DNA of 32,000 nucleotides from Acidothermus cellulolyticus 11B (GCF_000015025.1 NC_008578.1:420001-452000); one strand, 5' to 3'. Positions 15,611-32,000 are shown, counted from the stretch's first letter. Program-made: numbers and translations. The notes: a model not told the origin generated them from the letters alone.

Positions 15611-18328
15611 TTGCGTCGCGCCCTCATCCTCCCCGCACTGCTCGCGCTTCCGATTGGTCTTCTCGTCGCTCCTGTCATCTCTGCACCCACTCCCACGCCG
15701 CACGCGGTGGCGCCGCGCGTCTACCACCACTCGCTCAACGTCCCGCCGCAACCGGTAACGAGCGGCGGCCTGGTCACGACCGGCGAGTTGGCGACCAAGC
15801 CGTTCCGCGCGGTGGGGCTGAGTTGGCGACACGATCCGGCGATCACCAATCTCAAAGCCGAGATTCGCGTGCGCACCGACGGGCGCTGGACGTCGTGGCA
15901 GGACGTCGAGGCCAGTGACATCGGTGCGGATCGGTCCACGGACTCCGGGCGGGTGGCACCGCGGGACGCGACCGAGCCGCTCTGGGTCGATCACGCGGAC
16001 GGCGTCCAGGTGCGGCTGATCGCATATACCGGGGACGAGCCGAAGGATCTCCGGATCGAGCTCATCGACCCCGGCACTTCCGCAGCCGATGCGCATCCGG
16101 GCCCGCCGCATCCGCTGCAAACAGCCGTGGCTGCCGCTGCGCAACCGCAGATCTACACCCGTGCCCAGTGGGGCGCGGACGAGTCGCTGCGGCTCTCGGC
16201 ATGTCCGGACGGTCCGCAGTACACCGGGCCGGCCAAGGTGGGGTTCGTCCACCACACGGTGACCGGGAACTCGTACACGCCTGCCGACGTACCCGCCATC
16301 ATCCGGTCGATCTACGCCTATCACGTGCAAGGCGAAGGCTGGTGCGACATCGGATACAACTTCCTCGTCGACCAGTTCGGCCGGATCTGGGAAGGCCGGT
16401 ACGGCGGTGTCGACAAGAACGTGCTCGGCGCGCATACCGGCGGGTTCAACACCAACAGTTTCGGCGTCGCGATGATTGGGACGTTCACCACCGCCGTGCC
16501 GCCGACCGCGATGGTCAATGCAGTCGCCGCACTGATGGCGTGGAAATTCACCATCAACTACGACAATCCCCTCGGCACCGCGACTCTCGTCGCTGCATCT
16601 TTCAGCGGATCGCGATACCCGGCAGGGACGCCGGTGACCCTCAACGTCGTCTCCGGCCACCGTGACGTCGACCTCACCGACTGTCCCGGCGACGGCGGGT
16701 ATTCGGTCCTTCCGGCAATCCGCCAGCTTGCCGCGCAGGACATGGGGAATTCCGGCCTCGTCCAGCCGTCGGCCGTGGTCACCCAGCGCACCGTCTCGGG
16801 CAACGGCAGCGTTCGTGTCACCGCCGGCATGATGAGCCCCGGGGATTGGACGCTCGCGGTGCAGAATTCCGCTGGCGCCACGGTCCGGACGGTGTCCGGC
16901 TCCGGTTCGACCGTCGACGTCACGTGGGACATGACCGATGACTCGGGCGTTCCGGTTCCGCCCGGCCCGTACACCCTGACGTTGTCGAGCGTGCAGAACG
17001 GCAATGCGGCATATCCGTGGTCGACGACGGTTGTGGTTGGCGCGCCGTTCGGTTCATTGGACGGCGCAACGGCCCCTGCCCTGAACACTGTTGAGGTGCG
17101 CGGCTGGGCCCTGTCGGGGTTGAGCGACGATCCGGTGACCGTCCGGGTCACCGTTTCCGGGGCGACCGTCGGCACGACGACGGCCACCGCTCCGCGGCCT
17201 GATGTGGCTGCAGTGTTTCCGGGTTATTCCATCAACCATGGTTATGACGCCACTTTTTCCGCGAGCCCTGGTTATCACACGGTGTGCACGTTCGGCGTCA
17301 GTACCATCGGCGGCCCGGACACTCTGCTCGGCTGCCAAGGGGTGACCGTGCCTGGCCCGTCCATGACCGGGAATCCGCAAGGGAATTTCGAGACGATTCG
17401 CGGCGGACCCGGCGTCGTTGAAGTAACCGGCTGGGCACTTGACCCCGATACGGTCAATCCGATCACCGTGCATGTCTATGTCGACGGCGCATTTGCGACG
17501 GCGATCACGGCGGACGGCAACCGTCCGGACGTCGCCGCGGTCTTCCCGCAGTACGGCCCCGCGCACGGCTTCGACGGCTTTGTCACCGGCCTGTACGGCG
17601 GCACGCACACGGTGTGCGTATACGCGATAAACGTCGGCCCGGGCACGGTCAATCCCGTTCTCGGGTGCAAGCAGGTGAGTCTGCCGGGCGGGAATCCATT
17701 TGGGAATTTCGAAGCGGCGCAGGGTCTTCCCGGTGCTGCGCGGGTGACCGGCTGGACGATCGATCCCGACACGGCGAATCCGATTCTCGTACACGTGTAT
17801 GTGGACGGCCGGTTTGCCGGCCTCGGCCGGGCGGACGGCAACCGGCCGGATGTGGCCGCGGCGTTTCCCGGATACGGTGCGGCGCACGGCTTTGACGTGA
17901 CCGTGCCGGTCAGCTACGGCGGTCGTCACCAGGTCTGCGTGTACTCGATTAACGTCGGTGTCGGTTCGGTGAATCCGCTGCTCGGTTGCCGGACGGTGAC
18001 GCTGCCTACCGGGGTGCCGTTTGGTTCACTGGACACTGCGGTCGGCGGTTCGGGAACCATCCACGTCACCGGTTGGGCGATTGATCCGGACGTCGTCACC
18101 CCGATTGTGGTGCACATTTATGTGGACGGCCGCGGCGCCGTAGCGCTCACCGCGAACGGCTATCGCCCGGATGTTGCAGCGGCATTTACCGGATACGGAT
18201 CCGCGCATGGTTTTGCCGGCGACGTCGGCGCTTCGCCGGGTACTCACCTGGTGTGCGCGTACGGCATCAATGTCGGGCCGGGTAACGTGAATCCGCTGTT
18301 CCGGTGCCTGCGGGTGACCGTGCGCTGA
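15611..18328 (+). CDS. Secreted N-acetylmuramoyl-L-alanine amidase (Amidase_2/PGRP domain) + Ig-like domain + 4 copies of the ~105-aa repeat
   Basis: TTG start with AGGAG 8 nt upstream, followed by signal peptide MRRALILPALLALPIGLLVAPVISAP. The Amidase_2 core spans about 16151-16690 (YTRAQWGADE...VHHTV...GWCDIGYNFLVD...GAHTGGFNTNSFGVAMIG...GHRDV..TDCPG). A FlgD-Ig-like stretch (GDWTLAVQNSAG...PPGPYTLTLSS) lies at about 16835-16990. Confidence 0.9.
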   Translation: MRRALILPALLALPIGLLVAPVISAPTPTPHAVAPRVYHHSLNVPPQPVTSGGLVTTGELATKPFRAVGLSWRHDPAITNLKAEIRVRTDGRWTSWQDVEASDIGADRSTDSGRVAPRDATEPLWVDHADGVQVRLIAYTGDEPKDLRIELIDPGTSAADAHPGPPHPLQTAVAAAAQPQIYTRAQWGADESLRLSACPDGPQYTGPAKVGFVHHTVTGNSYTPADVPAIIRSIYAYHVQGEGWCDIGYNFLVDQFGRIWEGRYGGVDKNVLGAHTGGFNTNSFGVAMIGTFTTAVPPTAMVNAVAALMAWKFTINYDNPLGTATLVAASFSGSRYPAGTPVTLNVVSGHRDVDLTDCPGDGGYSVLPAIRQLAAQDMGNSGLVQPSAVVTQRTVSGNGSVRVTAGMMSPGDWTLAVQNSAGATVRTVSGSGSTVDVTWDMTDDSGVPVPPGPYTLTLSSVQNGNAAYPWSTTVVVGAPFGSLDGATAPALNTVEVRGWALSGLSDDPVTVRVTVSGATVGTTTATAPRPDVAAVFPGYSINHGYDATFSASPGYHTVCTFGVSTIGGPDTLLGCQGVTVPGPSMTGNPQGNFETIRGGPGVVEVTGWALDPDTVNPITVHVYVDGAFATAITADGNRPDVAAVFPQYGPAHGFDGFVTGLYGGTHTVCVYAINVGPGTVNPVLGCKQVSLPGGNPFGNFEAAQGLPGAARVTGWTIDPDTANPILVHVYVDGRFAGLGRADGNRPDVAAAFPGYGAAHGFDVTVPVSYGGRHQVCVYSINVGVGSVNPLLGCRTVTLPTGVPFGSLDTAVGGSGTIHVTGWAIDPDVVTPIVVHIYVDGRGAVALTANGYRPDVAAAFTGYGSAHGFAGDVGASPGTHLVCAYGINVGPGNVNPLFRCLRVTVR
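17042..18325 (+). repeat. Array of 4 tandem ~105-aa protein repeats (amidase C-terminus): 17042-17353, 17369-17686, 17687-18007, 18008-18325
   Basis: The units align on NPxGNFE / GWAxDPD / PIxVHVYVDG / RPDVAAAFPGYGxAHGF / GxHxVCVYxINVGxGxxNPxLGC. Copy 1 is degenerate. Confidence 0.9.
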
Positions 18329-18419
18329 CCGGCTTCGCCGGCTGCCGGTGCGGCCGCGGCCCGCCGCGCTGATTGCCGGTAAGATGCCGCCCTGGACACC
18401 GTCAGGCGGCGAGGAGCGG

Positions 18420-19808: not shown

Positions 19809-19833
19809 GTCGGATCACGGACGGGCGTTAGGT
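19788..19833. repeat. 23-nt tandem duplication spanning the 3' end of the + strand GT gene and the convergent intergenic gap
   Basis: cggatcacggaccggcggtaggt / cggatcacggacgggcgttaggt, with 21 of 23 positions identical. The first copy contains the TAG stop (19806-19808). The second copy ends on the first base (19833) of the minus-strand GT stop codon. Confidence 0.9.
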
Positions 19834-20945
19834 CAGCCCGCGCAGGCCTGCCGGTAGGCGGCGACGGTCAGGTCGGCGCATCGGTCCCAGGTGAAGGTCG
19901 CGGCCCACGTCCGCCGGGCGGACCGGCCGGCGTCGTCAGCCGCGTCGTCCGAGATCGCGCAGAGCGCCTCCGCGAGCGCTTCGGCGTCCGAGACCGGGAC
20001 GTACCGGGCCAGCCCGCCGGTGACTTCGCGCAGCGCCGGGATGTCGCTCGCCACCACCGGCGTGCCGCAGGCGAACGCCTCGAGCGCCGGCAGTCCGAAA
20101 CCCTCGTACCGGGACGGAATCACCACGGCAGCCGCACCGGCGGTCAGCGAGCGGACGACGTCGTGCGGCAGGTAGCCGGTGCGCACCACTGATCCGTCGT
20201 CGGCGGTGTCCACCGGCACGTCACCCCACCCGGCGGCGCCGACCACGACGAGCGGCGGCACCTGCGGGTTGCCGGCCCGGGCGAGCCGGTGCGCCTGGAG
20301 GAGGACGGGCAGATTTTTGCGGGGTTCAAGGGTGCCGATGAAGAGCACATATCTAGCCGGGATCCGGTAACGCTCCCGCAGTTCGCGGCCCGGCGGGGTC
20401 GCGGTGAACCACGCGGCGTCCACCCCGAGCGGCGTGACCACCACGCGGTCACGCGGAAACCCATAGGCGGCCGTGAGGTCGTCGGCGATCGCCCGCGAGG
20501 GGACGACGACCACCCGGGCGCGTTGCAGGGCGCGCGGGACGAGCACCCGGTACTCCCGCGACTTCGCGTCGACGGTGTCGGGATACAGGAGGAAGGCCAG
20601 GTCGTGAATGGTGACGACTCCGGCGGCGGACCGGGCCGGCGGCAGCACGAAGTTGGTGCCGTGGAAGACGTCGGCCCGCCCGCAGATCCGTTCGACTGGT
20701 GGAAGATTGCTGAGCCGCCACGCGAGGCGGAGCGCTCGGGCCGGTGCCCGGCGCGCGCGCACGGCAGCTCCCGGCGGCAGGTCAGGCAGGCGGTTCAGCC
20801 GGCCCCGCCAGGTGAAGGCGGTGAGGGTGAGGCGGACGTCGTCCCGCGCGGCGAGGGCGGCGGCGAGCTGAGCGACGTAATGCCCGACGCCGGTGCGGAT
20901 GCCGAGCAGCGGGGTGGCGTCCAGCGTGACATGCACGCTCGGCAT
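19833..20945 (-). CDS. Glycosyltransferase family 4 (GT-B, group 1)
   Basis: VHVTLDATPLLGIRTGVGHYV N-terminus; C-domain FIGTLEPRKNLPVLL...IPSRYEGFGLPALEAFACGTPVVASD (EX7E). I chose ATG 20945; the tracked start at 21038 adds a non-homologous leader. Confidence 0.85.
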   Translation of the reverse strand: MPSVHVTLDATPLLGIRTGVGHYVAQLAAALAARDDVRLTLTAFTWRGRLNRLPDLPPGAAVRARRAPARALRLAWRLSNLPPVERICGRADVFHGTNFVLPPARSAAGVVTIHDLAFLLYPDTVDAKSREYRVLVPRALQRARVVVVPSRAIADDLTAAYGFPRDRVVVTPLGVDAAWFTATPPGRELRERYRIPARYVLFIGTLEPRKNLPVLLQAHRLARAGNPQVPPLVVVGAAGWGDVPVDTADDGSVVRTGYLPHDVVRSLTAGAAAVVIPSRYEGFGLPALEAFACGTPVVASDIPALREVTGGLARYVPVSDAEALAEALCAISDDAADDAGRSARRTWAATFTWDRCADLTVAAYRQACAG

Positions 20946-21055
20946 CGTGTCACGGGCGCTGGTCGGACGGCGCGGTGGTGTGCCGTAGCATGGGGAAACG
21001 ACCGACAAGATCGTACCCGCACGAATGGTGCGCCGCACGAAGCCGGAGTCCCACG

Positions 21056-21862
21056 GTGACCCAGGTGGCCGAGTTGTGGCGTTACCGCGGTTTGATCGGC
21101 AATTTCGCCAGCCGCGAGCTGAAATCGAAGTACAAGCACAGTGTGCTCGGCTGGGCCTGGTCGCTGATCAATCCTGCGGCGACGCTTGCGATCTATACCG
21201 TGGTTTTTTCGACGATATTCCGGGCGACGCCGCCTCCCGCGCACAACGGCATGACGACCTACGTCGTCTATCTGTTCATCGGCCTGGTCGCGTGGAACTT
21301 CTTCAGCAATGTGGTCAACGGCAGCATGGCGGCGCTGATCGGCGCCGGCGCGTTGCTCAAGAAGATTTACTTTCCGCCGTACGCACCGGTCCTCGGCACC
21401 GCGGCTTCGGCGCTGGTGCAGACGAGCATCGAGTTCGGCGTCCTGTTGCTCGTGCTCGTCGGCGTGGAGAACGTCTCCTGGTCGCTCTTCCTGACGCCGC
21501 TCGTCTTGGCGCTGCTGCTCATCTTCGCCTCGGGGATCGGTCTCCTCTTCGCGCTGTTCAACGTCTTTTACCGGGACATCAGCTACTTGGTCGGCGTGGT
21601 GTTGCAGCTCATTTTCTATGCGACACCGGTCATTTGGGCGCCGCAGCAGCTGCTCGGGCACGCGCACGGCCACCTCGCGGTGCGGGTACTTGCCATCAAT
21701 CCGCTGTACCAATTCGTCGAGGGTTTCCGCGACGTGCTCTGGACCGGAACGGTTCCGTCAGCAAGCCGGTGGGGGTGGATGATTCTCGCCGCGGCGATCA
21801 GCATCGGTGTCGGGCTGACCGTGTTCATTCGCGGGTCGCGTGACGTGAGCGAGGAACTATGA
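21056..21862 (+). CDS. wzm: ABC-2 type polysaccharide export permease (Wzm/RfbD/TagG-like)
   Basis: LWRYRGLIGNFASRELKSKYKHSVLGWAWSLINP is the classic ABC-2 N-terminal motif, followed by about 6 TM segments. GTG 21056 has GGAG 7 nt upstream. The stop overlaps the next start (ATGA). Confidence 0.85.
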   Translation: MTQVAELWRYRGLIGNFASRELKSKYKHSVLGWAWSLINPAATLAIYTVVFSTIFRATPPPAHNGMTTYVVYLFIGLVAWNFFSNVVNGSMAALIGAGALLKKIYFPPYAPVLGTAASALVQTSIEFGVLLLVLVGVENVSWSLFLTPLVLALLLIFASGIGLLFALFNVFYRDISYLVGVVLQLIFYATPVIWAPQQLLGHAHGHLAVRVLAINPLYQFVEGFRDVLWTGTVPSASRWGWMILAAAISIGVGLTVFIRGSRDVSEEL

Positions 21863-23133
21863 CGCAAACCGCTACGTCCGATCGTCCACCGGCGGTCATC
21901 GTCGACCACGTCACGAAGGATTTCAAGCTGTACCGGGAACGCCGGACCAGCCTCAAGGAGCGGCTGACGACTCGGCGGCCGAGCCGTTACGAGTTGTACC
22001 GCGCGCTTAACGACGTCAGTCTCGTCGTGCCTGCGGGATCGACGTACGGCCTGATCGGAGCCAACGGATCCGGCAAGAGCACGTTGCTGAAGTTGATGGC
22101 GAACATCCACCGCCCGACCAGCGGCACTATCACGCACAACGGCAGGATCACCGCGCTGCTGGAGCTGGGTGCGGGCTTTCACCCGGAACTTTCCGGCCGC
22201 GACAACGTCTACCTCAATGGGTCGATTCTGGGACTGAGCCGGAAGCAGGTGGCCGCGGCGATGGATGACATCATCGAGTTCAGCGGCCTCCGTGACTTCA
22301 TTGACGCACCGGTCAAGGTCTATTCGTCCGGAATGTACGTGCGTCTCGGCTTCTCGGTCGCGGTCAACCTCGACCCGGAAATTCTCATCATCGATGAGGT
22401 CATTGCGGTGGGTGACGAGGAGTTTCAGCGCCGTTGCTTCGACCACCTGGCGAAGCTGCGCCGGCGCGGCGTCACCATCATTTTCGTCTCGCACAGCATG
22501 CCGCTCGTGCAGACGCTCTGCGATCGAGTGGCCTGGATCGACCGGGGAGTGCTGCGGGCCGAAGGGGATCCGAGCGAGGTCGTCGACGCGTACCTCGCGG
22601 TGGTGAACGCCGCCGAGCGGGAACGTCTCGCCGCGCAGGGGGAAGCCGCGGCGTCCGGTGAGGCCGTGCGGCGCGGCAGCCGGGAGATTGTCGTGAGCAA
22701 CGTGAGTTTTCTCGACGGCAACGGGGAACCGACGCTCGCCGCCGTCGCCGGCGAGCGGCTCGTCGTCCGGGTGCACTACGCCGCCGCACAACCGGTCACC
22801 GCACCGGTCTTTGGCCTTGCCTTCCATACCGAAGGCGGCGTGCTCGTCAGCAGCCCGAATACCGAATATGCCGGCGTGCGATTCGGCACCCTGCACGGTG
22901 AGGGTTACGTCGAGTACGTGCTCGACCACCTTCCCCTCACCCCGGGGACGTATCTCGTCTCGGCATCCATCACGGACACGTCGTTGCTGCACGTGTACGA
23001 CCAGCGCGACCGGGCGTTCACCTTGACCGTGCAACCTGGGCATTCCCTCGATCGCGGCGGGGTGGTGACCCTCGGTGGACGCTGGTCGGTTGTCGGATCA
23101 ACGGTGGGCGAGCGGGTGGAGGCAATGTCGTGA
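21859..23133 (+). CDS. wzt: Polysaccharide ABC exporter ATP-binding protein (Wzt/TagH-like) with C-terminal Wzt_C-type beta-sandwich domain
   Basis: Walker A GANGSGKST, signature YSSGMYVRLGF and Walker B ILIIDE are present. The extra ~150-aa C-terminal domain (22681-23130; EIVVSNVSFLDGNGEP...LVVRVHY...GTYLVSASI) resembles the O-antigen-cap-binding domain of Wzt. Confidence 0.85.
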   Translation: MTQTATSDRPPAVIVDHVTKDFKLYRERRTSLKERLTTRRPSRYELYRALNDVSLVVPAGSTYGLIGANGSGKSTLLKLMANIHRPTSGTITHNGRITALLELGAGFHPELSGRDNVYLNGSILGLSRKQVAAAMDDIIEFSGLRDFIDAPVKVYSSGMYVRLGFSVAVNLDPEILIIDEVIAVGDEEFQRRCFDHLAKLRRRGVTIIFVSHSMPLVQTLCDRVAWIDRGVLRAEGDPSEVVDAYLAVVNAAERERLAAQGEAAASGEAVRRGSREIVVSNVSFLDGNGEPTLAAVAGERLVVRVHYAAAQPVTAPVFGLAFHTEGGVLVSSPNTEYAGVRFGTLHGEGYVEYVLDHLPLTPGTYLVSASITDTSLLHVYDQRDRAFTLTVQPGHSLDRGGVVTLGGRWSVVGSTVGERVEAMS

Positions 23134-26100
23134 AGGTCAACCTCGGGTGCCGCGGCGGCTATTTCGACGGTTGGACCAACGTGGATGCGGACGCCGGAGT
23201 CCGCGCGGACATTCATCTCGATCCGCTCGATTTTCTCCGCCGGTACGCCGACGACATTGACACGTTGTACGTCGGTGCGCTGCTGGAGCAGCATCCGGTC
23301 GAGTACGCCTTGTCGTTGCTGCGCCTCGCCAATGACCGGCTGTGTCCCGGCACGGTCGTCGTGGCGGTGACGCACGACGTCAAGGCGATTTTGCGCGCCG
23401 CCGTCACCGGCGCCCTGACTGCCGCAGAATCGGCGGCTGCGGATGTGTCCCGGTATGTGGAGCAACCGGAGAACGTGTCGTACTACGACACACACTCGCT
23501 CGCGGCCCTGTTCCACCGCGCCGGTTTTGCCGATGTGACGCCGATTGGCGACCTGGACGCCGAACTGTCTGCGCTCGGCGTCGGTCCGGTCGATGCCCGG
23601 TGGCGCTGCGCGGTGCGCGGTGTCGCGGTAGGCCGGCGCTATCGCAGCGTCGATGCCATTGTCGAAGCCGTTACCGAGGACACCGCCGGTGAAACCGCCA
23701 GGGAAGCGGCTGAGCCGGCAGCCGAGGAAACGGCTGGTGTTTCCCGGGCTGGTGTGTCCCGGGCGGCAGGCGGTGCTGACGCGGGCAGACCGCTGCGGCC
23801 TGAGGTGCTCACCGAGGCGCATTCCGCGTTGCGTGAGGTGCAGAAGCTGCGCAGCGCGCTGATTCGTGAGCATGAGCGGCGGGTGCTTGCCGAGCAGTAC
23901 CTGGAGGAGCTGACCGAGCGGACTGGCGAGGACACCGCGCGACGCGACGAGCCGGTGGAACGCGTTCCCGAAGTGGGCGGTCGTGAACCCGACACCGCCG
24001 CTGCGGAGAACGCCGCGGCCCTCACCTGGCGGGAACGGGCCAAGCGTTTCGCCAAGACTGTGCTCCCTCCCGGATCCCGTGGACGTATTGCGGCGCTGGG
24101 CGCGCTCCACCTGTACCGCGAAGGGCGGACCGTGCTGCGGAGCCTCCGGCAGGTCGCGGCGGAAGCGGGATTTGCCCGGCCGCCGAGTTATTCGCGGTGG
24201 TACCGATATCACGACGCGACACCGCATCACCTGAGACTCCAGCGGCGTGCGTCCGAGCGCGCGACGATGCCGCCGACGTTTCTCGTCTGCGTCCTGGCCG
24301 ACACCGCCGACCGCCAGCCGATCGCAACGACCATTGCGAGCATTCGCAGTCAATCCTGGCAGCACGCGAAGCTGGTCATTTGCGCTGCGGAACCGATCGC
24401 GCGTGCGCTCCAGGGGGTTTTCTCTGACGTCGACGTCATCGGCGCGCCGACGGTCGCGGACGCCGTGATGCGGGCGGTGGATGGCAGCGACCGGGATTTT
24501 GTGCTGCTGCCGGACGCCGGGGACGTGCTTGCCGCGGACTGCCTCTATCGCGTGGCACAGGCGGCGTGGCGAAATCCCTTGCTTGACCTCACCTACTGGG
24601 ACGACGACCAGCTCGGTGCCGACGGACGCCGGCATGACCCGCTCTTCCGCCCGTCCTGGTCGCCCGAGATGCTCTTCAGCGTCAACTATCTCGCCCAGTC
24701 CTTCGCCGTCCGGCGCCGGCGGATCCGTGCCATTGGGTCGCTCCACGGTGATTCCGCGGAGGTCATGCGCTGGGATCTCCTGCTGCGCGGCAATTTCACC
24801 GGCGAGCAGGTGGAACGACTCGCGCACGTCCTTGGGCACGTGCGTCGCCGTGTCTTCGGCGTGACTGAGGCCGGCCGGCAGGTTGTGCAGGCCGAACTGG
24901 CGCGTCGCGGTCTTCCGGCGGCTGCGGAACTCGATGCGCACGGCGTACGGCTGCGCTGGCAGCTTCCGGAGTGGCCGACGGTCAGCATCATCATCCCCAC
25001 CCGGCACAACCGCCGACTGCTCTCCACTGTGCTCGACGGGCTGCGGGCCACGGATTATCCGTCGTTCGAGGTGAGAATCGTCGACAACGGCGGCTACTCA
25101 ACGGAGAACGAGGCGTGGTACGCCGAACAGCTGCGCGGGCTGGACGCGCACGTCACGTGGTGGACCGAGGAGCCGTTCAACTACTCGCGGGTCAACAATG
25201 CCGGCGCCGCTGACGCCCGCGGTGACGTGCTGGTTTTTCTCAACGACGACATCGAACTGACCGATCCGTCCTGGCTGCGTGAACTCGTCGGATGGACCTC
25301 GGTGTCCGACATCGGGCTCGTCGGCCTGCAATTGCTTGACGGCAACGGACGCATCCAGCACGGCGGTGTCATCCTCGGTCTCGGCGGTTTCGCCGACCAT
25401 CTCTTCCAGGGCATGGCGCCCGGCACCATGACGATGTTCGGCCACACCGGGTGGTATCGCAACCTCTTGTCGGTGACCGGGGCGTGTGTCGCGGTACGCC
25501 GTGAGGTGTTTCGCACGATCGGCGGCTTCGACGAACGGTTCATCCTCTGCGGCAGTGACGTCGCGTTGGGACTCGACCTCGTCGAAGCCGGTTACCGGAA
25601 CATCTGCTCGCCGTACGGCGGGGTTCGGCATTTGGAGTCAGCCACCCGCGGCACCGACATTCCGCGGCAGGATTTCTTCACCAGCTACTGGCGCTACAAC
25701 ACGTGGCTCTTCGGTGGTGACCCGTACTTCTCACCGAATCTCTCGCTGTACAGCCGGGAGCCGCGGTTGCGGAATCCGTTCGATCCGCCGATTTTGAAGC
25801 GGGTGTCAGCGGTTCTCGGCCGTGAGCTTCGGGTGTTCCGGCAAAAGAGCGATGCATCCGAGGCGGCTGGACTCGCCGCGGTGTCCCGGGCGGACGACGT
25901 CGACGTCGCCGCGGTCCGCTCATTGCACGAGCGCAATCAGGGTCACATCGACGTCCGGACCATCAACTGGTACATCCCGGAAATTGATTCACCGTTTTAC
26001 GGCGGCATCAACACCGCATTCCGGATGGCCGACTACCTCGCGCGTCGGCACGGAGTGCAGAACCGCTTTGTCGTGTGGGCAAAACCGGCTGAGGAGTTCA

Positions 26101-27023
26101 TGCGCTCGGCACTTGCCGCTGCGTTTCCCACGCTGGCCGACTCCGAGATCGTATTCTTCGATGCGGTCGACAGCGGTGCCGCCGAGCAGATCCCACCTGC
26201 CGACGTCGCGATCGCCACGCTCTGGCTGACGGCGTACGCGGTCTTGCACGCGCGTAACGTGCGCCGGAAGTTCTACCTCGTGCAGGATTTCGAGCCGATG
26301 TTCTATCCCGCGGGCACGTTGTATGCCGTGGCCGAGGAGACGTACCGGTTCGGCTTGTACGGCCTGTGCAACACCGACAACCTTCGCCGCATGTATGTCG
26401 AGGAGTACGGCGGAAAGGCGATGGCGTTCACTCCGGCGGTGGATCCGGCGGTCTTCCACGCCGTCGGGCGGTCCTGGCGGAGTGAGGACGATCCGGTGAC
26501 CGTGTTCGTCTACGCCCGTCCCGGTCACTGGCGCAATTGCTGGGAAGTCGCGTCGCTCGCGTTGCGGGAGTTGAAGAACCGGCTGGGTGACCGGGTGCGC
26601 ATCGTCACCGCTGGATCGTGGGCCATCGACCCGGCTGCCGCCGACAGCATGCAGCAGCTCGGTCTGCTGAGCTATAAGGGCACCGGGAATCTCTACCGCA
26701 CCTGCGATGTCGGGCTGGCGCTGACGGTCTCCAAGCATCCGTCGTACCTGCCGCTGGAGCTGATGGCCTGCGGCGTTCCGGTGGTCGCCTTCGATAATCC
26801 CTGGGGGTACTGGATTCTTCGCGACGGCGAGAATGCGCTGCTCGCCCGGCGTACCGTCGATGGTCTGGCGGATGCGCTCGAGCGGCTCTGCACCGACCAT
26901 TTGCTGCGCGAGAAGCTCGCGCAGAATGCCCTGGCGACCATCGCCGAGGGGTATACGAACTGGGATCACGCGTTTCGCGACATCTACCGGTATCTGTGCG
27001 ATCCGGAGGCCGGGTCGGCCTGA
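23130..27023 (+). CDS. 1297-aa multidomain glycopolymer synthase: methyltransferase-like domain, coiled-coil linker, degenerate GT2, canonical GT2, C-terminal GT-B (WsaF-like?) domain
   Basis: GTG 23130 overlaps the wzt stop (GTGA). Residues 1-165 are VNLGCRGGYFDGWTNVDAD...LYVGALLEQH (class I MTase-like). A heptad-like charged helix covers about 23802-23940 (LTEAHSALREVQKLRSALIREHERRVLAEQYLEELTERT). GT2-like domain 1 starts about 24267 (FLVCVLAD...LLPDAGD). GT2 domain 2 starts at 24975 (VSIIIPTRHN...VDNGG...VLVFLNDDIEL). The GT-B domain starts about 25950 (INWYIPEIDSPFYGGINTAF...ELMACGVPVVAFD). Confidence 0.8.
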   Translation: MKVNLGCRGGYFDGWTNVDADAGVRADIHLDPLDFLRRYADDIDTLYVGALLEQHPVEYALSLLRLANDRLCPGTVVVAVTHDVKAILRAAVTGALTAAESAAADVSRYVEQPENVSYYDTHSLAALFHRAGFADVTPIGDLDAELSALGVGPVDARWRCAVRGVAVGRRYRSVDAIVEAVTEDTAGETAREAAEPAAEETAGVSRAGVSRAAGGADAGRPLRPEVLTEAHSALREVQKLRSALIREHERRVLAEQYLEELTERTGEDTARRDEPVERVPEVGGREPDTAAAENAAALTWRERAKRFAKTVLPPGSRGRIAALGALHLYREGRTVLRSLRQVAAEAGFARPPSYSRWYRYHDATPHHLRLQRRASERATMPPTFLVCVLADTADRQPIATTIASIRSQSWQHAKLVICAAEPIARALQGVFSDVDVIGAPTVADAVMRAVDGSDRDFVLLPDAGDVLAADCLYRVAQAAWRNPLLDLTYWDDDQLGADGRRHDPLFRPSWSPEMLFSVNYLAQSFAVRRRRIRAIGSLHGDSAEVMRWDLLLRGNFTGEQVERLAHVLGHVRRRVFGVTEAGRQVVQAELARRGLPAAAELDAHGVRLRWQLPEWPTVSIIIPTRHNRRLLSTVLDGLRATDYPSFEVRIVDNGGYSTENEAWYAEQLRGLDAHVTWWTEEPFNYSRVNNAGAADARGDVLVFLNDDIELTDPSWLRELVGWTSVSDIGLVGLQLLDGNGRIQHGGVILGLGGFADHLFQGMAPGTMTMFGHTGWYRNLLSVTGACVAVRREVFRTIGGFDERFILCGSDVALGLDLVEAGYRNICSPYGGVRHLESATRGTDIPRQDFFTSYWRYNTWLFGGDPYFSPNLSLYSREPRLRNPFDPPILKRVSAVLGRELRVFRQKSDASEAAGLAAVSRADDVDVAAVRSLHERNQGHIDVRTINWYIPEIDSPFYGGINTAFRMADYLARRHGVQNRFVVWAKPAEEFMRSALAAAFPTLADSEIVFFDAVDSGAAEQIPPADVAIATLWLTAYAVLHARNVRRKFYLVQDFEPMFYPAGTLYAVAEETYRFGLYGLCNTDNLRRMYVEEYGGKAMAFTPAVDPAVFHAVGRSWRSEDDPVTVFVYARPGHWRNCWEVASLALRELKNRLGDRVRIVTAGSWAIDPAAADSMQQLGLLSYKGTGNLYRTCDVGLALTVSKHPSYLPLELMACGVPVVAFDNPWGYWILRDGENALLARRTVDGLADALERLCTDHLLREKLAQNALATIAEGYTNWDHAFRDIYRYLCDPEAGSA

Positions 27024-27095
27024 GCCCGACCCTGAGCCCGAATGAGCCTGTCCGGGCCGGCCTGGGCAGTGTCCAGCCGGTCACCGAAGATCGGG

Positions 27096-27170: not shown

Positions 27171-27252
27171 ATGCCGAAGTTTCGGCCATGTGGGGGGACC
27201 GCGCCGGTTGACGGGTTACGGTACGGAGGCCGATATCGCGAAGGGAGACGGG

Positions 27253-29901
27253 ATGGCGGAGCGCCACGCGCCGGGCATGGCTCACGACAGATCTCCGGTG
27301 CCGCATCGGAGCTGTTCCGCGCGGAGCCGGTCCGCACAGCTCGGTGGTGGCCGCCGGTGCCTGGCGCGGAACCGGTACCACGTCCTTCGCGCCGCTCTCG
27401 TGGTATTGCTGGCCGCTGGTCTCACTGGCGTCGGGCTCGCTCCCGGTGCACTCCGGGCTGCATCGGCCGAAGAGTTCGTCCCGGTGAGTGCGGACGGAAC
27501 GTTCACCGTCACCGGCCACGGGTACGGCCACGGCATCGGCATGAGCCAGTACGGTGCACTCGGCGCGGCGAAGCAAGGTCTATCCGCCGGCCAGATTCTC
27601 GCCTTCTACTACCCCGGCACCGTCCAGCAGAACGTCGGAAACCCGCAAATCCGGGTGCATCTGACGGCGTATGACGGTACGGGCATCACCGTAGGGACGC
27701 CGCCGGGCCAGCAGCAGATGACGGTGACCGACGTCGCGTCCGGCAAGTCTGCCACGGGTCCCGCGACGATGTACAAGGTGACGGTGGATCCAAGCGCGTT
27801 GCACGTCTGGTATCTGAACCCGTCGACCAAGTCGTGGCAACCGTTTCCCCTCGGCGGCTCCGCGGACACCACCGGCCCAGTGACGTTCGCCACCGGCGCC
27901 GGCGTACGGATCTACTCCGGCGACGGCAGCTCCCGGCAATATCGCGGAACGATGCGCATAACGCGCATCGGCAGCCAGACGATCGCCGCGGTCAATGACG
28001 TCGACCTTCAGTCTTACCTGTACGGCGTCGTGCCCCGGGAAATGCCGGACTGGTGGGGAAGTTCCGCGCCGGCCGCCCTGCAGGCACAGGCGATTGCCGC
28101 CCGCTCCTACGTGCTCGCGGTCGCCAATCCGAGCGCCACCTGGGACATTTGCGATACGGCGGCCTGCCAGGTGTACGGCGGCCAGCAGCTCATCACCGCG
28201 CAGGGCGCGGTGACCAATCTGGAAGGAAGTTACTCCCGCGCCGCTGTCGACGCGACCAGCGGGATCGCGTTGTTCTACAACGGTGCGCCGGCGTTCACCC
28301 AATTCTCGGCGTCCAACGGCGGTCAGGTCGCGCCCGGCAGCAAGCCGTACCTGGTGGCCAAACCCGATCCGTACGACACCGCCGATGTCGACCCGAACGT
28401 CACTTGGACGGTCAAGCTCTCGGCATCGTCGTTGCAGAGCGCGTACCCGCAGGTGGGCACTCTGCAAGGCATCGACGTCGTCTCCCGCGACGGTTACGGT
28501 GATTTCGGCGGCCGCATCACCTCGTTGCAACTTGTCGGCACCGGCGGCACCGTTTCGGTCGGCACGTATCTCGGCCTGAAGTCGAATTACTGGACCGCGC
28601 AGGGTGGCCCGAGCCCGCAGCCGGTCATTCTCAACCGTGGCACGGCGGTCGGCAATTTCGAAGCGGCGACGGCCGCAGGGCCCGGCCTCATTGCGGTGCA
28701 GGGATGGTCCTTCAACAAGGCGAACACGTCGGTCGCGGACTATGTCGACGTGTATGTCGACGGTGTCGGTGCGGGGCGGTTGGTCGCGAATCAGGTTCGG
28801 CCTGATGTGGCACAGGCGTTCAACGGGGCGGGGCCGTATCACGGGTTCTCCGCGGTCGTTGCGTCAACGGGAGGGCCGCATCGGGTCTGCGTGTACGGCA
28901 TCGACGGCGTGACGAATCCACAGCTGGGTTGCCGATCCGTGACGCTGCCGGCGGGTAATCCGCGCGGTAATTTCGAGACGCTGGCGGACGTCGGCACCGG
29001 TGTGCAGCTGAGTGGTTGGGCGCTGGATCCCGATGTGGCCGCCTCGATTGCCGTGCACGCCTATGTGGACCGCACGATAGCCGCCGTCGCGACCGCCGAC
29101 CAGCCGCGGCCCGATGTTGCCGCCGTATTTCCCGGCTACGGGCCGGCGCACGGCTTCTCCCTTGTGCTGCCGGCATTGCAGGGCACGCATAGCTACTGTG
29201 TGTACGGGATAAACGTCGGGATCGGAACGACGAATCCGCAACTGGGCTGCCGCACGATAACCCTCAACCGCAACCCACGCGGCGCCATGACAATCGCCGG
29301 ATACCAGCACGGCACGGTGACGGTGGCCGGGTGGGTGGTCGACCCTGACACGCAGGGACCGATCACCGTGCACGTCTACATCGACGGCAGGTGGGCCGGT
29401 CAGGCGACGGCGAACCTCGATGGTGCGACTGATGCGGCCAATCAGTTCCCCGGTTACGGTACACAGCACGCTTTCTCCGCGTCGCTGCCGCTGAGCGCCG
29501 GGCCGCACCAGATTTGCGTGTACGGCATCAACGTCGGCCAGGGTAACCAGAATCCACTGCTCGGCTGTGCCCTGATGACCGGCGACGGCAATCCGATCGG
29601 TCATCTCGACAACGTTGCGCAGGTGAACGGTGTCTGGACGGCGCAGGGCTGGGCGCTCGATCCGGACGTGACCACTCCCATTCCGGTGGACATTTACGTG
29701 GATCAGCAGAAGGTCGCGCGGGTCATGACCGGATCTCCGCGGCCTGATGTTGCGGTGTACTACGCCGGCTGGGGTTCCGCCACCGGTTTCCAGGCGCCGT
29801 TAACGCTGGCTGGCGGAACGCATAAAATTTGCGCCTATGCCGTCAATCAGCCGGCTGGTAACGTCAGTACCGCGTTAGGCTGCGTCACGATCCGCCTCTG
29901 A
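27253..29901 (+). CDS. Secreted SpoIID/LytB-domain protein (lytic-transglycosylase-type) + 4 copies of the ~105-aa repeat
   Basis: The SpoIID core spans about 27490-28400 (GHGYGHGIGMSQYGALGAA...YRGTMRI...LQSYLYGVVPREMP...ALQAQAIAARSY...CDTAACQVYGG...FSASNGGQ). The hydrophobic signal or anchor is VLRAALVVLLAAGLTGVGLAPGALRAASA. I chose ATG 27253 (GGGAG upstream); ATG 27190 and ATG 27277 are alternatives. Confidence 0.85.
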   Translation: MAERHAPGMAHDRSPVPHRSCSARSRSAQLGGGRRCLARNRYHVLRAALVVLLAAGLTGVGLAPGALRAASAEEFVPVSADGTFTVTGHGYGHGIGMSQYGALGAAKQGLSAGQILAFYYPGTVQQNVGNPQIRVHLTAYDGTGITVGTPPGQQQMTVTDVASGKSATGPATMYKVTVDPSALHVWYLNPSTKSWQPFPLGGSADTTGPVTFATGAGVRIYSGDGSSRQYRGTMRITRIGSQTIAAVNDVDLQSYLYGVVPREMPDWWGSSAPAALQAQAIAARSYVLAVANPSATWDICDTAACQVYGGQQLITAQGAVTNLEGSYSRAAVDATSGIALFYNGAPAFTQFSASNGGQVAPGSKPYLVAKPDPYDTADVDPNVTWTVKLSASSLQSAYPQVGTLQGIDVVSRDGYGDFGGRITSLQLVGTGGTVSVGTYLGLKSNYWTAQGGPSPQPVILNRGTAVGNFEAATAAGPGLIAVQGWSFNKANTSVADYVDVYVDGVGAGRLVANQVRPDVAQAFNGAGPYHGFSAVVASTGGPHRVCVYGIDGVTNPQLGCRSVTLPAGNPRGNFETLADVGTGVQLSGWALDPDVAASIAVHAYVDRTIAAVATADQPRPDVAAVFPGYGPAHGFSLVLPALQGTHSYCVYGINVGIGTTNPQLGCRTITLNRNPRGAMTIAGYQHGTVTVAGWVVDPDTQGPITVHVYIDGRWAGQATANLDGATDAANQFPGYGTQHAFSASLPLSAGPHQICVYGINVGQGNQNPLLGCALMTGDGNPIGHLDNVAQVNGVWTAQGWALDPDVTTPIPVDIYVDQQKVARVMTGSPRPDVAVYYAGWGSATGFQAPLTLAGGTHKICAYAVNQPAGNVSTALGCVTIRL
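28639..29898 (+). repeat. Array of 4 tandem ~105-aa protein repeats (SpoIID protein C-terminus): 28639-28950, 28951-29265, 29266-29580, 29581-29898
   Basis: Same consensus as the amidase array. Copy 2 is canonical (NPRGNFE..GWALDPD..RPDVAAVFPGYGPAHGF..YCVYGINVGIGTTNPQLGC). Copies 1, 3 and 4 each lack some motifs. Confidence 0.9.
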
Positions 29902-29973
29902 ACGGTCCGGCACACCGATGCCGTGTGGCGTGGTCATGCATCACGGATCCGCCGACGGTTGAAGGAGTATGTC

Positions 29974-32000
29974 ATGTTCCACCGGGCTACCCTTCGGCGT
30001 CCCTCCGCGCTTGCCGGGATCGTCGCAACCGTTGCGGGCAGCCTGATCGCAACGGTTGGTCATCCGGCGACCGCGCATGCCGCGACGCCGCAGCGGCAAG
30101 CCTCTGGTTGGATCACCTATTGGCAGACCGGTTCGACGACCCAGGTCGCCAACAACGGGGATCTTTTCTCGGACGTGTCCGTCTTCTGGTTTCACGCGGC
30201 CAGTGCCACGTCGATCGTGCCGTCGGGAAGTACGCCGGACAGCGTGCTGCAATCCACGATCGCTGCTGTACGGTCCCGCGGCGTGCCGGTGACGATTACT
30301 GTGACGGACGGCACCGGCAGCGGTGTGATGGCCTCGATTCTCTCCAATCCGACGACCCGCACGCAGCACGAGCAAGCGCTGCTGGCGCTCGCCACACGTT
30401 ATGGGGCGAGCGGTATTGACCTGGACTACGAAAACATGGCGGTGTACGCCAACTCCAATCCGGCGCTCGTGCAACCGACCCGGACGGGTTTCGATGCGCT
30501 GGTGCAGGAGCTGTCGACGTTGCTGCACCAGCACGGGATGATTCTTGCCGTTGATGTCATGTCGAAGACCAGCGAACCGGGCGCGACCCCGGCCGGCCAG
30601 GTGTACGACTACCCGACAATCGGCCGGTGGGCGGACCGGGTGCGCATCATGACCTACGACCAGCATTCCGCCGGTTCGGCGTACCCGGGCGGGCCGATCA
30701 GCTCGATCTCCTGGGTGCAGACCATCTTGAATTTCGCGGTCACCGTCATCCCGCCGCGGAAGATTTTCATGGGGGTGCCGCTGTATGGCTACGACTGGGC
30801 CAGTACCGGCGGCCGGGCGAAGGCCGTCACCTACCCGCAGGTGGTGAACCTGGTCGCTCAGTATCACGCGACGCCGCGGTGGTCAGCGCCGGACGGGGAA
30901 CCGTATGTCACGTACACGGACGCCAGCGGTGTCCAGCATTCGGTCTGGTACAACGACGCCAATGCGTTGCAGGCGCGGCTTCCGCTGGTCGGCAAGTACG
31001 GGCTCGGCGGGGTTGCCTTCTGGTCGTTCGGCGATGAAGATCCCGGCATCTGGTCGATACTTCGTGCCGCGACATATGGGCCGAATCCGTTCGGCAATTT
31101 CGAACAGGCAGTGCTCTGGCCGGGTGGGGTGCGGTTGACCGGCTGGGCGATCGACCCGAACACGGCGTCGTCCATCAACGTCGACGTGTACGTCGACCGC
31201 GTGATGGTGCAACGCGTTCTGGCGTCTGGAAACAGGCCGGACGTCGGCACCTTCTACTACGTGTACGGCAGCGCGCACGGTTTCGACACGGTGATCCCGC
31301 TGCACGCCGGGACGTACACGATCTGCGTGTATGGCATCAATGTCGGGCTGGGGGATACGAATTCGCAGCTCGGCTGCCGGACGGTGACGATGCCCACGAA
31401 CAATCCGGTTGGCAATTTCGAAGCCGCCGGCGGTGCGTACGGCGTCCTCACCGTCTCCGGTTGGACGCTCGACCCGGACACCGCTGACCCGATTTTCGCC
31501 CACGTATATGTCGACGGACAGTTGCGTACGATCACCCTGGCGAACGGGAACCGGCCGGACGTCGCCGCTGCGTTTCCCGGATGGGGCGCGGCCCACGGAT
31601 TTTCCGCGTCGGTGACCGTGACCGGCGGCACGCACACGGTCTGTGTGTACGGCATCAACGTCGGCTTCGGAACGGTGAATCCGCAGCTGGGGTGCAAGAC
31701 CGTATCGGTGAGTTCCGGCAATCCGGTCGGCAATTTTGAGTCCGTCACCGGCGGGTTGGGGACGCTCACCGTAAGTGGCTGGACGATTGATCCGAATACA
31801 CCGGCGCCGATCGACGTGCACGTGTATGTCGACGGCCGATTCGCCGGCAGCGGAACCGCGAACGCGAATCGGCCGGACGTCGGAGCGGCGTTCCCGTCGT
31901 ACGGTCCGGATCACGGTTTTGCGGTCACCGTGGGTGCGCCGAGCGGAACCCATACGGTCTGTGTGTACGCCATCAATGTCGGCCCGGGTGAAGCGAATCC
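29974..32000 (+). CDS. Secreted glycoside hydrolase family 18-type protein + at least 3 copies of the ~105-aa repeat; the 3' end lies outside the window
   Basis: This ORF is absent from the track because there is no in-window stop; I translated it by hand in frame 1. GAAGGAG lies 6 nt upstream of ATG 29974. The signal peptide is MFHRATLRRPSALAGIVATVAGSLIATVGHPATAHA. The GH18 catalytic motif is YGASGIDLDYE, followed by MTYDQH and GVAFWSFGDED. Confidence 0.85.
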   Translation, partial: MFHRATLRRPSALAGIVATVAGSLIATVGHPATAHAATPQRQASGWITYWQTGSTTQVANNGDLFSDVSVFWFHAASATSIVPSGSTPDSVLQSTIAAVRSRGVPVTITVTDGTGSGVMASILSNPTTRTQHEQALLALATRYGASGIDLDYENMAVYANSNPALVQPTRTGFDALVQELSTLLHQHGMILAVDVMSKTSEPGATPAGQVYDYPTIGRWADRVRIMTYDQHSAGSAYPGGPISSISWVQTILNFAVTVIPPRKIFMGVPLYGYDWASTGGRAKAVTYPQVVNLVAQYHATPRWSAPDGEPYVTYTDASGVQHSVWYNDANALQARLPLVGKYGLGGVAFWSFGDEDPGIWSILRAATYGPNPFGNFEQAVLWPGGVRLTGWAIDPNTASSINVDVYVDRVMVQRVLASGNRPDVGTFYYVYGSAHGFDTVIPLHAGTYTICVYGINVGLGDTNSQLGCRTVTMPTNNPVGNFEAAGGAYGVLTVSGWTLDPDTADPIFAHVYVDGQLRTITLANGNRPDVAAAFPGWGAAHGFSASVTVTGGTHTVCVYGINVGFGTVNPQLGCKTVSVSSGNPVGNFESVTGGLGTLTVSGWTIDPNTPAPIDVHVYVDGRFAGSGTANANRPDVGAAFPSYGPDHGFAVTVGAPSGTHTVCVYAINVGPGEAN
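31081..32000 (+). repeat. Array of at least 3 tandem ~105-aa protein repeats (GH18 protein): 31081-31395, 31396-31710, 31711 to beyond 32000
   Basis: NPFGNFEQ..GWAIDPN..VDVYVDR..NRPDVG; NPVGNFEA..GWTLDPD..AHVYVDG..NRPDVAAAFPGWGAAHGF..VCVYGINVGFGTVNPQLGC; NPVGNFES..GWTIDPN..VHVYVDG..NRPDVGAAFPSYGPDHGF..VCVYAINVG. Confidence 0.9.

Follow-up and report, generated by a model that had tools for sequence, protein, structure and literature searches.

Three repeat-bearing wall hydrolases interleaved with a putative rhamnose-glycopolymer locus of Acidothermus cellulolyticus, and a large family of candidate wall-targeting repeats

Introduction

The window analyzed here is a 32,000-nucleotide stretch of DNA from Acidothermus cellulolyticus 11B (GCF_000015025.1, NC_008578.1:420001-452000). 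It encodes three predicted peptidoglycan hydrolases, with an Amidase_2, a SpoIID and a GH18 domain, respectively, each of which ends in tandem copies of the same repeat of about 106 amino acids, and the three genes lie among genes for the synthesis and export of a putative rhamnose-containing glycopolymer. Relatives of the repeat are found beside genes of the same kind in several actinobacterial lineages, whichever enzyme the repeat is fused to. In the explanation that we prefer, the stretch is part of the cell-wall glycopolymer locus of A. cellulolyticus, which would use an ABC-transporter-dependent route; genes for autolysins are interleaved in this locus, and the repeat binds the rhamnose polymer. 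We put the probability of this explanation as a whole, with its three parts taken jointly, at about 0.5.

SLH, CWB2 and choline-binding proteins have already firmly established the principle of a wall polymer with hydrolases anchored to it. The novelty lies in the repeat module, which makes up a large family with no entry in Pfam or NCBIfam, and in the consistency with which Actinomycetota encode it beside clusters for rhamnose-polymer export. The placement and restraint of autolysins in non-mycolate Actinomycetota are poorly known, and nearly all of the catalogued wall-anchoring modules (LysM, SH3b, SLH, CWB1, CWB2, GW and others) are from Firmicutes. If the preferred explanation is true, the repeat gives these bacteria an anchoring system of their own, and it could be put to use in surface display and in the search for the polymer that it binds. 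If the ligand is peptidoglycan instead, the repeat would still be a new peptidoglycan-binding domain, and the link to the polymer would become incidental.

Three hydrolases with a common repeat

The amidase carries an Amidase_2 domain (PF01510, 48.5 bits with a cutoff of 26) that has PDB matches to PGRP and T7 lysozyme, and the zinc-site motifs HHT, GHRD (H-x-D) and DCPG (CPG) are found at amino acids 213-216 and 349-360. Its N-terminal region is assigned to Rv3811_N by precomputed Pfam hits. The SpoIID domain of the second protein is recognized by PF08486 (75.8 bits, cutoff 23) and by TIGR02669 (157.8 bits, cutoff 83.3), and matches SpoIID in the PDB (4rwr). The protein falls below the cutoff of the sporulation-specific equivalog TIGR02870 (89.6 versus 234.75), and is thus a SpoIID-domain enzyme in a non-sporulating organism rather than SpoIID proper. 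The GH18 domain of the third protein has its best PDB matches in 5jh8, 3cz8 (YdhD), 4s3j (SleL) and 4s3k (YaaH), and is nearest to this spore-cortex type rather than to classical chitinases. Its catalytic motif, DLDYE, lies at amino acid 149; in the full DxxDxDxE motif, Ser takes the place of the first Asp. Enzymes of the YdhD/SleL/YaaH type act on peptidoglycan, not on chitin.

Based on family membership and on the presence of the catalytic motifs, the three enzymes are predicted to cleave three different types of bond, in agreement with what had been proposed in a first-pass annotation of this DNA. Both the SpoIID and the SleL/YdhD/YaaH types of enzyme act on glycan strands without stem peptides, and an adjacent amidase therefore makes functional sense. 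The amidase would remove the stem peptides first, and the SpoIID and GH18 enzymes would then cut the denuded glycan; general knowledge of these families makes such an order probable. At the C-terminus of the three hydrolases there is no LPXTG sorting signal or membrane anchor, and the last repeat runs to the stop codon.

There are four copies of the repeat in the amidase (amino acids 478-905), four in the SpoIID protein and four in the GH18 protein, three of the latter within the window. The 12 copies have pairwise identities of 30-68%, which bears out the earlier claim that one repeat is common to the three enzymes. The fourth GH18 copy, which lies outside the window and was outside the profile, scores E = 2.4e-33 against that profile. 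Positions G4, G20, W21, D53, G77, C82 and G91 are invariant, and Y36, V37, D38, R51, P52, V54, H65, G66, F67, H79, Y84 and C99 are nearly so. Given the two conserved cysteines (C82 and C99) and the predicted structure described below, the repeat is modeled as a disulfide-containing immunoglobulin (Ig)-like module. The repeat region of the amidase is net acidic, with 24 Asp and 4 Glu as compared to 16 Arg and 1 Lys, so that a neutral glycan would fit better as ligand than a polyanion of the teichoic acid type.

The repeat regions of the three proteins have no Pfam match at E<=1 and no NCBIfam match, and the profiles for LysM, SH3b, SPOR, CW_7, PG_binding_1/2, CW_binding_1, CW_binding_2, SLH, ChW and LGFP do not match the repeats at E<=1. 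From an alignment of 11 repeats, AlphaFold2 confidently predicts a seven-strand beta sandwich (pLDDT 90.9). The best Foldseek matches in the PDB are the N-terminal domain of ChiA (1eib, TMq 0.57) and the dimerization domain of sulfite oxidase (TM about 0.57). Searches of both the PDB and BFVD return generic Ig-like matches only, with TM of about 0.5-0.67, and the viral matches are generic Ig domains. A functional assignment by fold was rejected, given that the relatives are only generic Ig-like or E-set domains and include no specific lectin. Identity with Big_7 (PF17957) was also rejected, because the repeats of the window do not match it at E<=1. Some family members give weak, partial Big_7 scores over about 30 of the 70 profile positions, with no single stretch significant, and relatives reach the whole-protein cutoff only via summed partial matches, none of them individually significant. 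On the predicted model, the repeat is a divergent Ig-like domain without a described family. A sequence-profile search of the PDB gave only non-significant matches, to the C-terminal domain of EfAmi1 (E = 0.26) and to the Ig repeats of antifreeze proteins; both were rejected as evidence, and EfAmi1 was kept as a lead. Literature searches on Acidothermus wall chemistry and on actinobacterial wall-binding modules brought up no description of the repeat.

Size of the family and fusion partners

The repeat family was defined by searching 1.84 billion cluster representatives with a profile, and comprises 10,158 representatives at E<=1e-3 and 2,109 at E<=1e-30. A genome scan with the four closest repeats, with one genome per species, yielded 375 relatives, from which 77 loci were drawn. 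These come from Acidothermaceae, Acidimicrobiia (many of them Iamiaceae), Microbacteriaceae, Modestobacter, Actinotalea, Gaiellales and Pseudonocardia, and hold 129 reading frames with the repeat. A few frames have one copy only, as some frames are fragments split by frameshifts in draft assemblies. Intact proteins carry the repeat at the C-terminus in 2-7 copies, followed directly by the stop codon, without an LPXTG signal or membrane anchor. The only case seen with repeats that are not terminal is that of two proteins of about 1295 amino acids (L027:8279-12163 and L033:763-4656), which have an N-terminal domain without a match, seven repeats in mid-protein and then about 300 amino acids without a family.

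Fusion partners were counted in 99 proteins from these loci. The N-terminal domain is GH25 in 14 proteins, SpoIID in 10, GH18 in nine, Peptidase_S8 in five, CAP in three, Amidase_2 in three and M23 in two, and there are single cases of an Rv2525c-like hydrolase, GH43, a glucosaminidase and a patatin-like protein. Three N-terminal groups have no family: one of 22 proteins from Microbacteriaceae and others, and two from Acidimicrobiia, with 11 and 10 proteins. A similar picture emerges from 55 full-length database representatives, which extend the list by polysaccharide deacetylase, VanY, reprolysin-like proteases and others; one of these 55 proteins also has an LGFP domain. Tandem copies at a free C-terminus, joined to a wide range of unrelated secreted enzymes among which peptidoglycan hydrolases predominate, are the hallmark of wall-targeting modules, the known set of which is reviewed in PMC5817068. 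Judged from the sequences, it is quite likely that the repeat targets proteins to the wall non-covalently.

Three catalytic-domain families without assignment were thus found riding on the same module. One is a Cys-rich domain of about 300 amino acids, with LQKEQ, CPD, YTPY and GNRNF motifs, that precedes 4-7 repeats in 22 loci (L031:9113-10000, L015:7667-9055 and 20 more) from Microbacteriaceae, Modestobacter and two metagenome-assembled genomes, and is absent from the window. The genes that encode it usually adjoin GT1, synthase or rml genes. This domain, unmatched in both Pfam and the PDB, is a candidate for a new wall hydrolase; a PDB profile search with the N-terminal domain labeled C1 gave no match. 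The other two families, likewise unassigned, are on repeat proteins of Acidimicrobiia (L004:6025-7005 and 10 others; L010:8171-9064 and nine others). One of them is always encoded beside a GH25-repeat gene and rmlA, and the other occurs in loci without cluster genes.

Linkage of the repeat to polymer genes

The 77 loci, 1.28 Mb in total, were searched with the window's own proteins. Homologues of the permease Wzm were found in 34 loci, of the ATPase Wzt in 29, of the 462-amino-acid GT1 glycosyltransferase in 29, of the GT2 domain of the synthase in 29, of RmlB in 28, of the RmlA-type nucleotidyltransferase in 27 and of RmlD in 26. The GT1 homologues score 120-590 bits, and the GT1 gene is the cluster gene most specifically conserved beside the repeat. 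Linkage was counted with score thresholds and with the distance measured from the repeat gene. At least one ABC, Rml, GT1 or synthase gene lies within 10 kb of the repeat gene in 50 of the 77 loci, often at less than 100 bp. Where the full 20-kb flanks are present, 28 of 41 loci are linked, and 23 of those 28 include the ABC transporter. For wzm/wzt, 35 pairs were observed with about one expected by chance, assuming 1-3 pairs per genome of 3-4 Mb. The control genes of the window behave differently: UDP-glucose dehydrogenase, the thioesterase and a 466-amino-acid membrane protein were found in none of the loci, the acyl-CoA dehydrogenases in two and LCP in three. Since these genes are absent or rare, mere synteny of the entire window in all genomes was rejected as an explanation.

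Linkage is seen in Acidothermaceae, Geodermatophilaceae, Microbacteriaceae, Cellulomonadaceae, Gaiellales and Acidimicrobiia, despite differences in the fused catalytic domain. The gene order is synthase, SpoIID-repeat, GH18-repeat in Acidothermaceae. The Modestobacter order is rmlB, rmlD, amidase-repeat, a repeat gene with an N-terminal domain without family, GT4, synthase and GT1. The repeat gene of Herbiconiux and Agromyces (L049 and L039) begins 10-39 bp 3' of the synthase gene, and the order of Acidimicrobiia is a repeat gene with an N-terminal domain without family, rmlA, GH25-repeat, rmlB and rmlD. The constant feature across lineages is therefore the repeat, not its attached enzyme. 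Seven genomes are represented by more than one repeat locus; in six of them, rml or ABC genes lie beside at least one such locus, and the other repeat genes of these genomes are dispersed.

The first-pass annotation had asked whether the repeat co-occurs with the wzm/wzt/synthase cluster across genomes. For gene neighborhoods, the answer is positive in the direction from repeat to cluster, as described above, but not from cluster to repeat. The reverse direction was examined with the GT1 glycosyltransferase, which has 2,829 homologues at E<=1e-20; eight contexts were looked at. In one of them, on a Frankiales-like contig (L081), SpoIID and GH18 genes that carry the repeat follow downstream, as in the window. 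At two other clusters (L082, 13452-21635, and L083, 11830-16319), with GT1 homologues 55-57% identical to that of the window, CW_binding_2 proteins, including an S8 protease, are encoded nearby instead of repeat proteins. This looks like a swap of the anchoring module at equivalent loci, and if such loci can exchange one wall-anchoring module for another, CWB2 proteins would be expected at homologous clusters that lack the repeat. In another context (L084), a ricin-type lectin and a PG_binding_1 lysozyme are encoded near GT1, and the other four have no anchoring-module protein nearby.

What the repeat may bind

The lineage-independent and specific linkage to rml, wzm/wzt and glycosyltransferase genes, together with the net acidic repeat region, points to a rhamnose-containing polymer of this locus type as the ligand, for which we see even odds. 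The polymer would then decide where and how strongly the autolysins act. A wider claim is more tentative and has a little less than an even chance of holding in all its parts: that the repeat founds a large family of rhamnose-glycopolymer-binding modules, which tether autolysins, proteases and exoenzymes to a wall rhamnan exported by Wzm/Wzt. This claim extends to more than 10,000 representative proteins of Acidothermaceae, Frankiales-like lineages, Geodermatophilaceae, Microbacteriaceae, Cellulomonadaceae, Gaiellales and Acidimicrobiia. The system would be the actinobacterial counterpart of SLH with its secondary cell-wall polymer and of CWB2/PSII, with the polymer as a spatial regulator of wall hydrolysis.

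Several observations weigh against binding of the rhamnose polymer. There is no cluster gene near the repeat in 27 of the 77 loci, and these loci are the best-scoring of the 375 matches rather than a random sample. The repeat lies within 10 kb in only one of the eight GT1-anchored clusters, which suggests that the polymer pathway is far more widespread than the repeat. PurK and PurE are found in seven of the 77 loci, all from Microbacterium, which means that inherited synteny accounts for a minor share of the linkage. The generic Ig-like or E-set sandwich of the model neither identifies nor excludes a sugar site. The repeat is absent from phage endolysins, as judged by tblastn of 50,697 INPHARED phage records and by IMG/VR, and the usual independent support for a cell-wall-binding domain is therefore missing. 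Finally, the window shows no rmlC gene.

Some of these facts are those expected if the ligand is peptidoglycan itself, for example its glycan backbone, and if proximity reflects an old synteny of clustered wall genes. Most fusion partners act on peptidoglycan, the nearest structural analogue, the N-terminal domain of ChiA, lies along a polymer of N-acetylglucosamine (GlcNAc), and the Microbacterium loci, the clusters without the repeat (seven of the eight GT1 contexts) and the unlinked repeat loci are all readily accommodated. We nevertheless regard this as the less likely outcome, with perhaps something over a quarter of the weight. The rml, wzm/wzt, GT1 and synthase genes are 4-5 times commoner in the repeat loci than any other neighbor from the window, even LCP being rare, and linkage survives changes in gene order, orientation and fused enzyme across classes. 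In addition, the peptidoglycan of Microbacteriaceae is of the B type, so that only the glycan backbone could be a ligand shared with these carriers. Alternatively, the repeats could be passive Ig-like spacers or oligomerization domains, as in a surface array, with no specific wall ligand. The fold, which matches generic Ig, FnIII and Big-type domains, and the partial Big_7 scores of some members would suit such a role. However, at a free C-terminus with no anchor or sorting signal there is nothing to space from, the near-invariant polar and aromatic residues (W21, D38, R51, D53, H65, F67 and H79) are unusually many for an Ig domain, and specific linkage to polysaccharide genes is not expected of a spacer, which makes this improbable.

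Two further explanations give the repeat proteins a part in the pathway itself. The hydrolases could serve it by opening the peptidoglycan for insertion of the polymer or by trimming the polymer, with the repeat docking to the export or ligation machinery. The tight interleaving, as with the repeat genes of Herbiconiux and Agromyces that directly follow the synthase gene, fits this idea, and GH18 and GH25 folds can act on glycans other than peptidoglycan. On the other hand, Amidase_2, SpoIID and M23 are peptidoglycan-specific families, the repeat is shared by S8 proteases, CAP proteins and a patatin-like lipase, and many repeat genes are far from the cluster. Given these varied carriers and dispersed genes, general surface display fits better than a dedicated machine, for which we see rather less than a one-in-ten chance. 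It is very improbable, finally, that the repeat proteins are substrates onto which the rhamnan is transferred as a protein glycan, as in the S-layer glycosylation cluster of Geobacillus stearothermophilus. A WsaF-like domain, and the same type of pathway beside genes for secreted proteins, are in keeping with this, and the polytopic membrane protein encoded at 12064-13464 could in principle be the transferase. Yet there is no oligosaccharyltransferase of the Wzy_C/O-antigen-ligase type among the proteins scanned, the two LCP ligases point to attachment to peptidoglycan, the candidate transferase has no counterpart at any of the 77 repeat loci and the repeats have no Ser/Thr-rich linkers.

Comparison with known systems

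In CWB2 proteins (CW_binding_2, PF04122), tandem modules of about 90-100 amino acids hold amidases, proteases and other surface proteins non-covalently on a wall polysaccharide linked to peptidoglycan (PMC5817068). The system of A. cellulolyticus resembles CWB2/PSII of Clostridioides difficile in its tandem modules on amidases and proteases, and in that CWB2 proteins take the place of repeat proteins at the two homologous clusters described above. There is no relation in sequence, given the lack of a Pfam match at E<=1; the repeat is predicted to be an Ig-like beta sandwich, and occurs in 2-7 copies rather than as a fixed triplet. For SLH domains and the choline-binding repeats (CWB1), polymer-specific modules likewise direct autolysins or surface proteins, and the polymer-modification genes lie near the genes for the anchored proteins (PMC5817068). 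The general logic of SLH with its pyruvylated secondary cell-wall polymer, and of CWB1 with teichoic acid, is the same as that proposed for the repeat and its polymer locus. In contrast, the repeat is unrelated in sequence and predicted fold and is net acidic, and the linked genes are for a rhamnose polymer and not a pyruvylated or choline-decorated one.

Mycobacterial Rv3811 lies near the arabinogalactan gene cluster and has C-terminal LGFP repeats thought to anchor it to the wall. The Acidothermus amidase shares with this protein an Rv3811_N region followed by Amidase_2, but its C-terminal module is the new repeat rather than LGFP. Rv3811 is listed as Ami3, of the amidase_2 type (PMC3987819). 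The SpoIID/LytB domain, which scores above cutoff, and the GH18 domain nearest to YdhD, SleL and YaaH recall SpoIID/SpoIIP and the cortex enzymes of Bacillus. Acidothermus, however, is non-sporulating, its amidase is of the Amidase_2/PGRP type and not SpoIIP, and the new repeat replaces LysM or membrane anchors. Big_7 and the N-terminal E-set domain of Serratia ChiA are alike to the repeat in their Ig-like beta sandwich.

Enterococci carry a rhamnopolysaccharide, and in view of this a relationship of the repeat to EfAmi1, a prophage amidase of Enterococcus faecium, would be interesting if true, although the match is non-significant. The unclassified C-terminal domain of EfAmi1 was proposed by its authors to bind carbohydrate; the crystal structure lacks it, and the description given for it is that of a helix-containing beta barrel (PDB 8C4D). 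Residues 207-289 of the 8C4D entry contain N-x-G, GW, RPDV and GFD motifs in the order in which they occur in the repeat, the only such match in the PDB, and this can be taken as a lead only.

The polymer pathway

Two gene clusters for capped chains exported by an ABC transporter are comparable to the window: that for the S-layer rhamnan of G. stearothermophilus (WsaE/WsaF, Wzm/Wzt, rml) and that of E. coli O9a (WbdD, Wzt with its C-terminal domain). Common to these and the window are Wzm, Wzt with a Wzt_C domain, a WsaF-like glycosyltransferase, a multidomain synthase whose N-terminus weakly resembles a methyltransferase in the window, and rml genes. They differ in that the methyltransferase match of the window is below cutoff, and in that LCP ligases, not a protein O-oligosaccharyltransferase, are encoded adjacently.

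The cytoplasmic glycosyltransferases of the locus are GT1, GT4 and the GT2 and WsaF-like domains of the synthase, and sugar nucleotides would be supplied by RmlA, RmlB and RmlD; neither rmlC nor a gene for an initiating phosphoglycosyltransferase was found within the window. The synthase consists of a weakly methyltransferase-like N-terminus (Pfam E = 0.007, below cutoff), a charged helical linker, a GT2 domain and a WsaF-like glycosyltransferase domain of the rhamnosyltransferase type; its C-terminal third matches the solved rhamnosyltransferase WsaF. Amino acids 1-600 (window 23130-24930) contain a degenerate methyltransferase-like motif, VNLGCRGG, and the charged helical stretch, and are followed by GT2. 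At two related clusters (L081 and L086) the synthase parts are separate genes, with a separate methyltransferase gene in the position of the N-terminus. The methyltransferase-like N-terminus and Wzt_C suggest capping and length control of the chain, as in WbdD or WsaE systems.

By analogy with the established behavior of such pathways, dTDP-rhamnose would be supplied by RmlA, RmlB and RmlD. A chain containing rhamnose would then be assembled in the cytoplasm, on a lipid carrier, by GT4, GT1 and the GT2/WsaF-like synthase. The chain would be capped and exported through Wzm/Wzt, the Wzt_C domain implying that a chain-end cap is recognized, and LCP enzymes would attach it to peptidoglycan. That the polymer contains rhamnose is suggested by the scores of the three Rml proteins and by the WsaF match.

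Gene map of the window

Coding frames were picked by G+C content at codon positions and checked against gene calls on identical DNA of another assembly (L078), which differs from the window by one mismatch in 18,871 bp. The 905-amino-acid amidase is identical to ABK52191.1, the 1297-amino-acid glycosyltransferase to ABK52196.1 and the Wzt protein to ABK52195.1. The G+C content is about 67% throughout. The coordinates of the features are collected in Table 1.

Table 1. Features of the polymer locus and its upstream flank, in window positions.
Feature	Position	Strand	Evidence
LCP (LytR_cpsA_psr + LytR_C), predicted glycopolymer-to-peptidoglycan ligase, copy 1	7403..8965	-	Pfam 144 bits; TIGR00350 140 bits, cutoff 62
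LCP (LytR_cpsA_psr + LytR_C), predicted ligase, copy 2	9156..10802	-	Pfam 173 bits; TIGR00350 165 bits
RmlA, long form (glucose-1-phosphate thymidylyltransferase)	10731..11798	+	TIGR01208 473.5 bits, cutoff 320; Pfam NTP_transferase
466-amino-acid polytopic membrane protein	12064..13464	+	hydrophobic translation
RmlB (dTDP-glucose 4,6-dehydratase)	13517..14503	+	TIGR01181 432 bits, cutoff 365
RmlD (dTDP-4-dehydrorhamnose reductase)	14500..15381	+	TIGR01214 338 bits, cutoff 224
Amidase_2 protein, whole gene	15611..18328	+	
Amidase, N-terminal part: signal peptide, Rv3811_N-like region, Amidase_2/PGRP, FlgD_ig	15611..17041	+	Pfam; precomputed PF27503; PDB matches; motifs
Amidase, C-terminal part: four copies of the 106-amino-acid repeat	17042..18325	+	repeat comparison; no Pfam match at E<=1
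GT1-type glycosyltransferase, 462 amino acids	18420..19808	+	Pfam Glyco_trans_1_4
GT4 glycosyltransferase	19833..20945	-	Pfam Glyco_transf_4 + Glycos_transf_1
Wzm, ABC-2 permease (ABC2_membrane)	21056..21862	+	PF01061 62.9 bits; family-level NCBIfam match to galactan Wzm
Wzt, ABC ATPase with C-terminal Wzt_C (glycan-cap-binding) domain	21859..23133	+	PF00005 70.7 bits; PF14524 88.5 bits, cutoff 30.4
Synthase, 1297 amino acids, GT2 + WsaF_N/C	23130..27023	+	Pfam; PDB 2x0d WsaF E=2e-17
SpoIID protein, whole gene	27253..29901	+	
SpoIID protein, N-terminal part: signal or anchor sequence, SpoIID/LytB domain	27253..28644	+	PF08486; TIGR02669; PDB 4rwr
SpoIID protein, C-terminal part: four repeat copies	28645..29898	+	
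GH18 protein, N-terminal part: signal peptide, GH18 domain (YdhD/SleL/YaaH type)	29974..31083	+	PF00704 96.6 bits; PDB 5jh8, 3cz8, 4s3j
GH18 protein, repeats 1-3; gene extends 355 bp beyond window	31084..32000	+	repeat comparison; L078

The gene order of the first-pass annotation (amidase, glycosyltransferase, glycosyltransferase on the minus strand, Wzm, Wzt, 1297-amino-acid synthase, SpoIID protein, GH18 protein) was recovered without change, and the gaps are as short as it had stated: 91 bp 3' of the amidase gene, about 230 bp between the synthase and SpoIID genes and 72 bp between the SpoIID and GH18 genes, with 4-bp overlaps joining wzm to wzt, and thus permease to ATPase, and wzt to the synthase gene. 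Its dTDP-sugar genes were likewise found upstream, the three Rml proteins scoring above their equivalog cutoffs, as were its two ligase genes, both of the LCP + LytR_C type on the minus strand and 5-8 kb upstream. The hydrolase genes had also been described as bracketing an ABC-transporter glycopolymer locus. They do share its location, but they do not bracket it: in the identical DNA of the other assembly, the GH18 gene, whose full product has 793 amino acids and ends after the fourth repeat, is directly followed by genes for BrkB, a GT2 and two GT4 glycosyltransferases. The glycopolymer locus is thus longer than the window shows, and the hydrolase genes lie interleaved within it.

No RNA genes were found in the window by Rfam and tRNA scans, and a scan of 15000-32000 for promoters and terminators gave chance-level results only. 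The left third of the window encodes a carboxyltransferase fragment, two acyl-CoA dehydrogenases, PurK, PurE, UDP-glucose dehydrogenase and a thioesterase. The acc-purK-purE-LCP-rml region is an old syntenic block of actinobacterial wall genes, and it resembles the accD5-purK-purE-Lcp1-rmlD region of Mycobacterium tuberculosis. PurK and PurE are encoded within 10 kb of the repeat gene in L040, L054, L057, L059, L067, L069 and L076, together with the carboxyltransferase in four of these, as compared to 2-11800 of the window.

The longest frame of the second LCP gene, on the minus strand, overlaps the start of rmlA, on the plus strand, by 72 bp (window 10731-10802). This LCP gene probably starts at a more internal position, in which case a short divergent promoter region would remain. 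The 466-amino-acid membrane protein, encoded between rmlA and rmlB, has no Pfam or NCBIfam match and no homologue in the 77 repeat loci, and might be a lineage-specific transferase or polymer-modifying enzyme.

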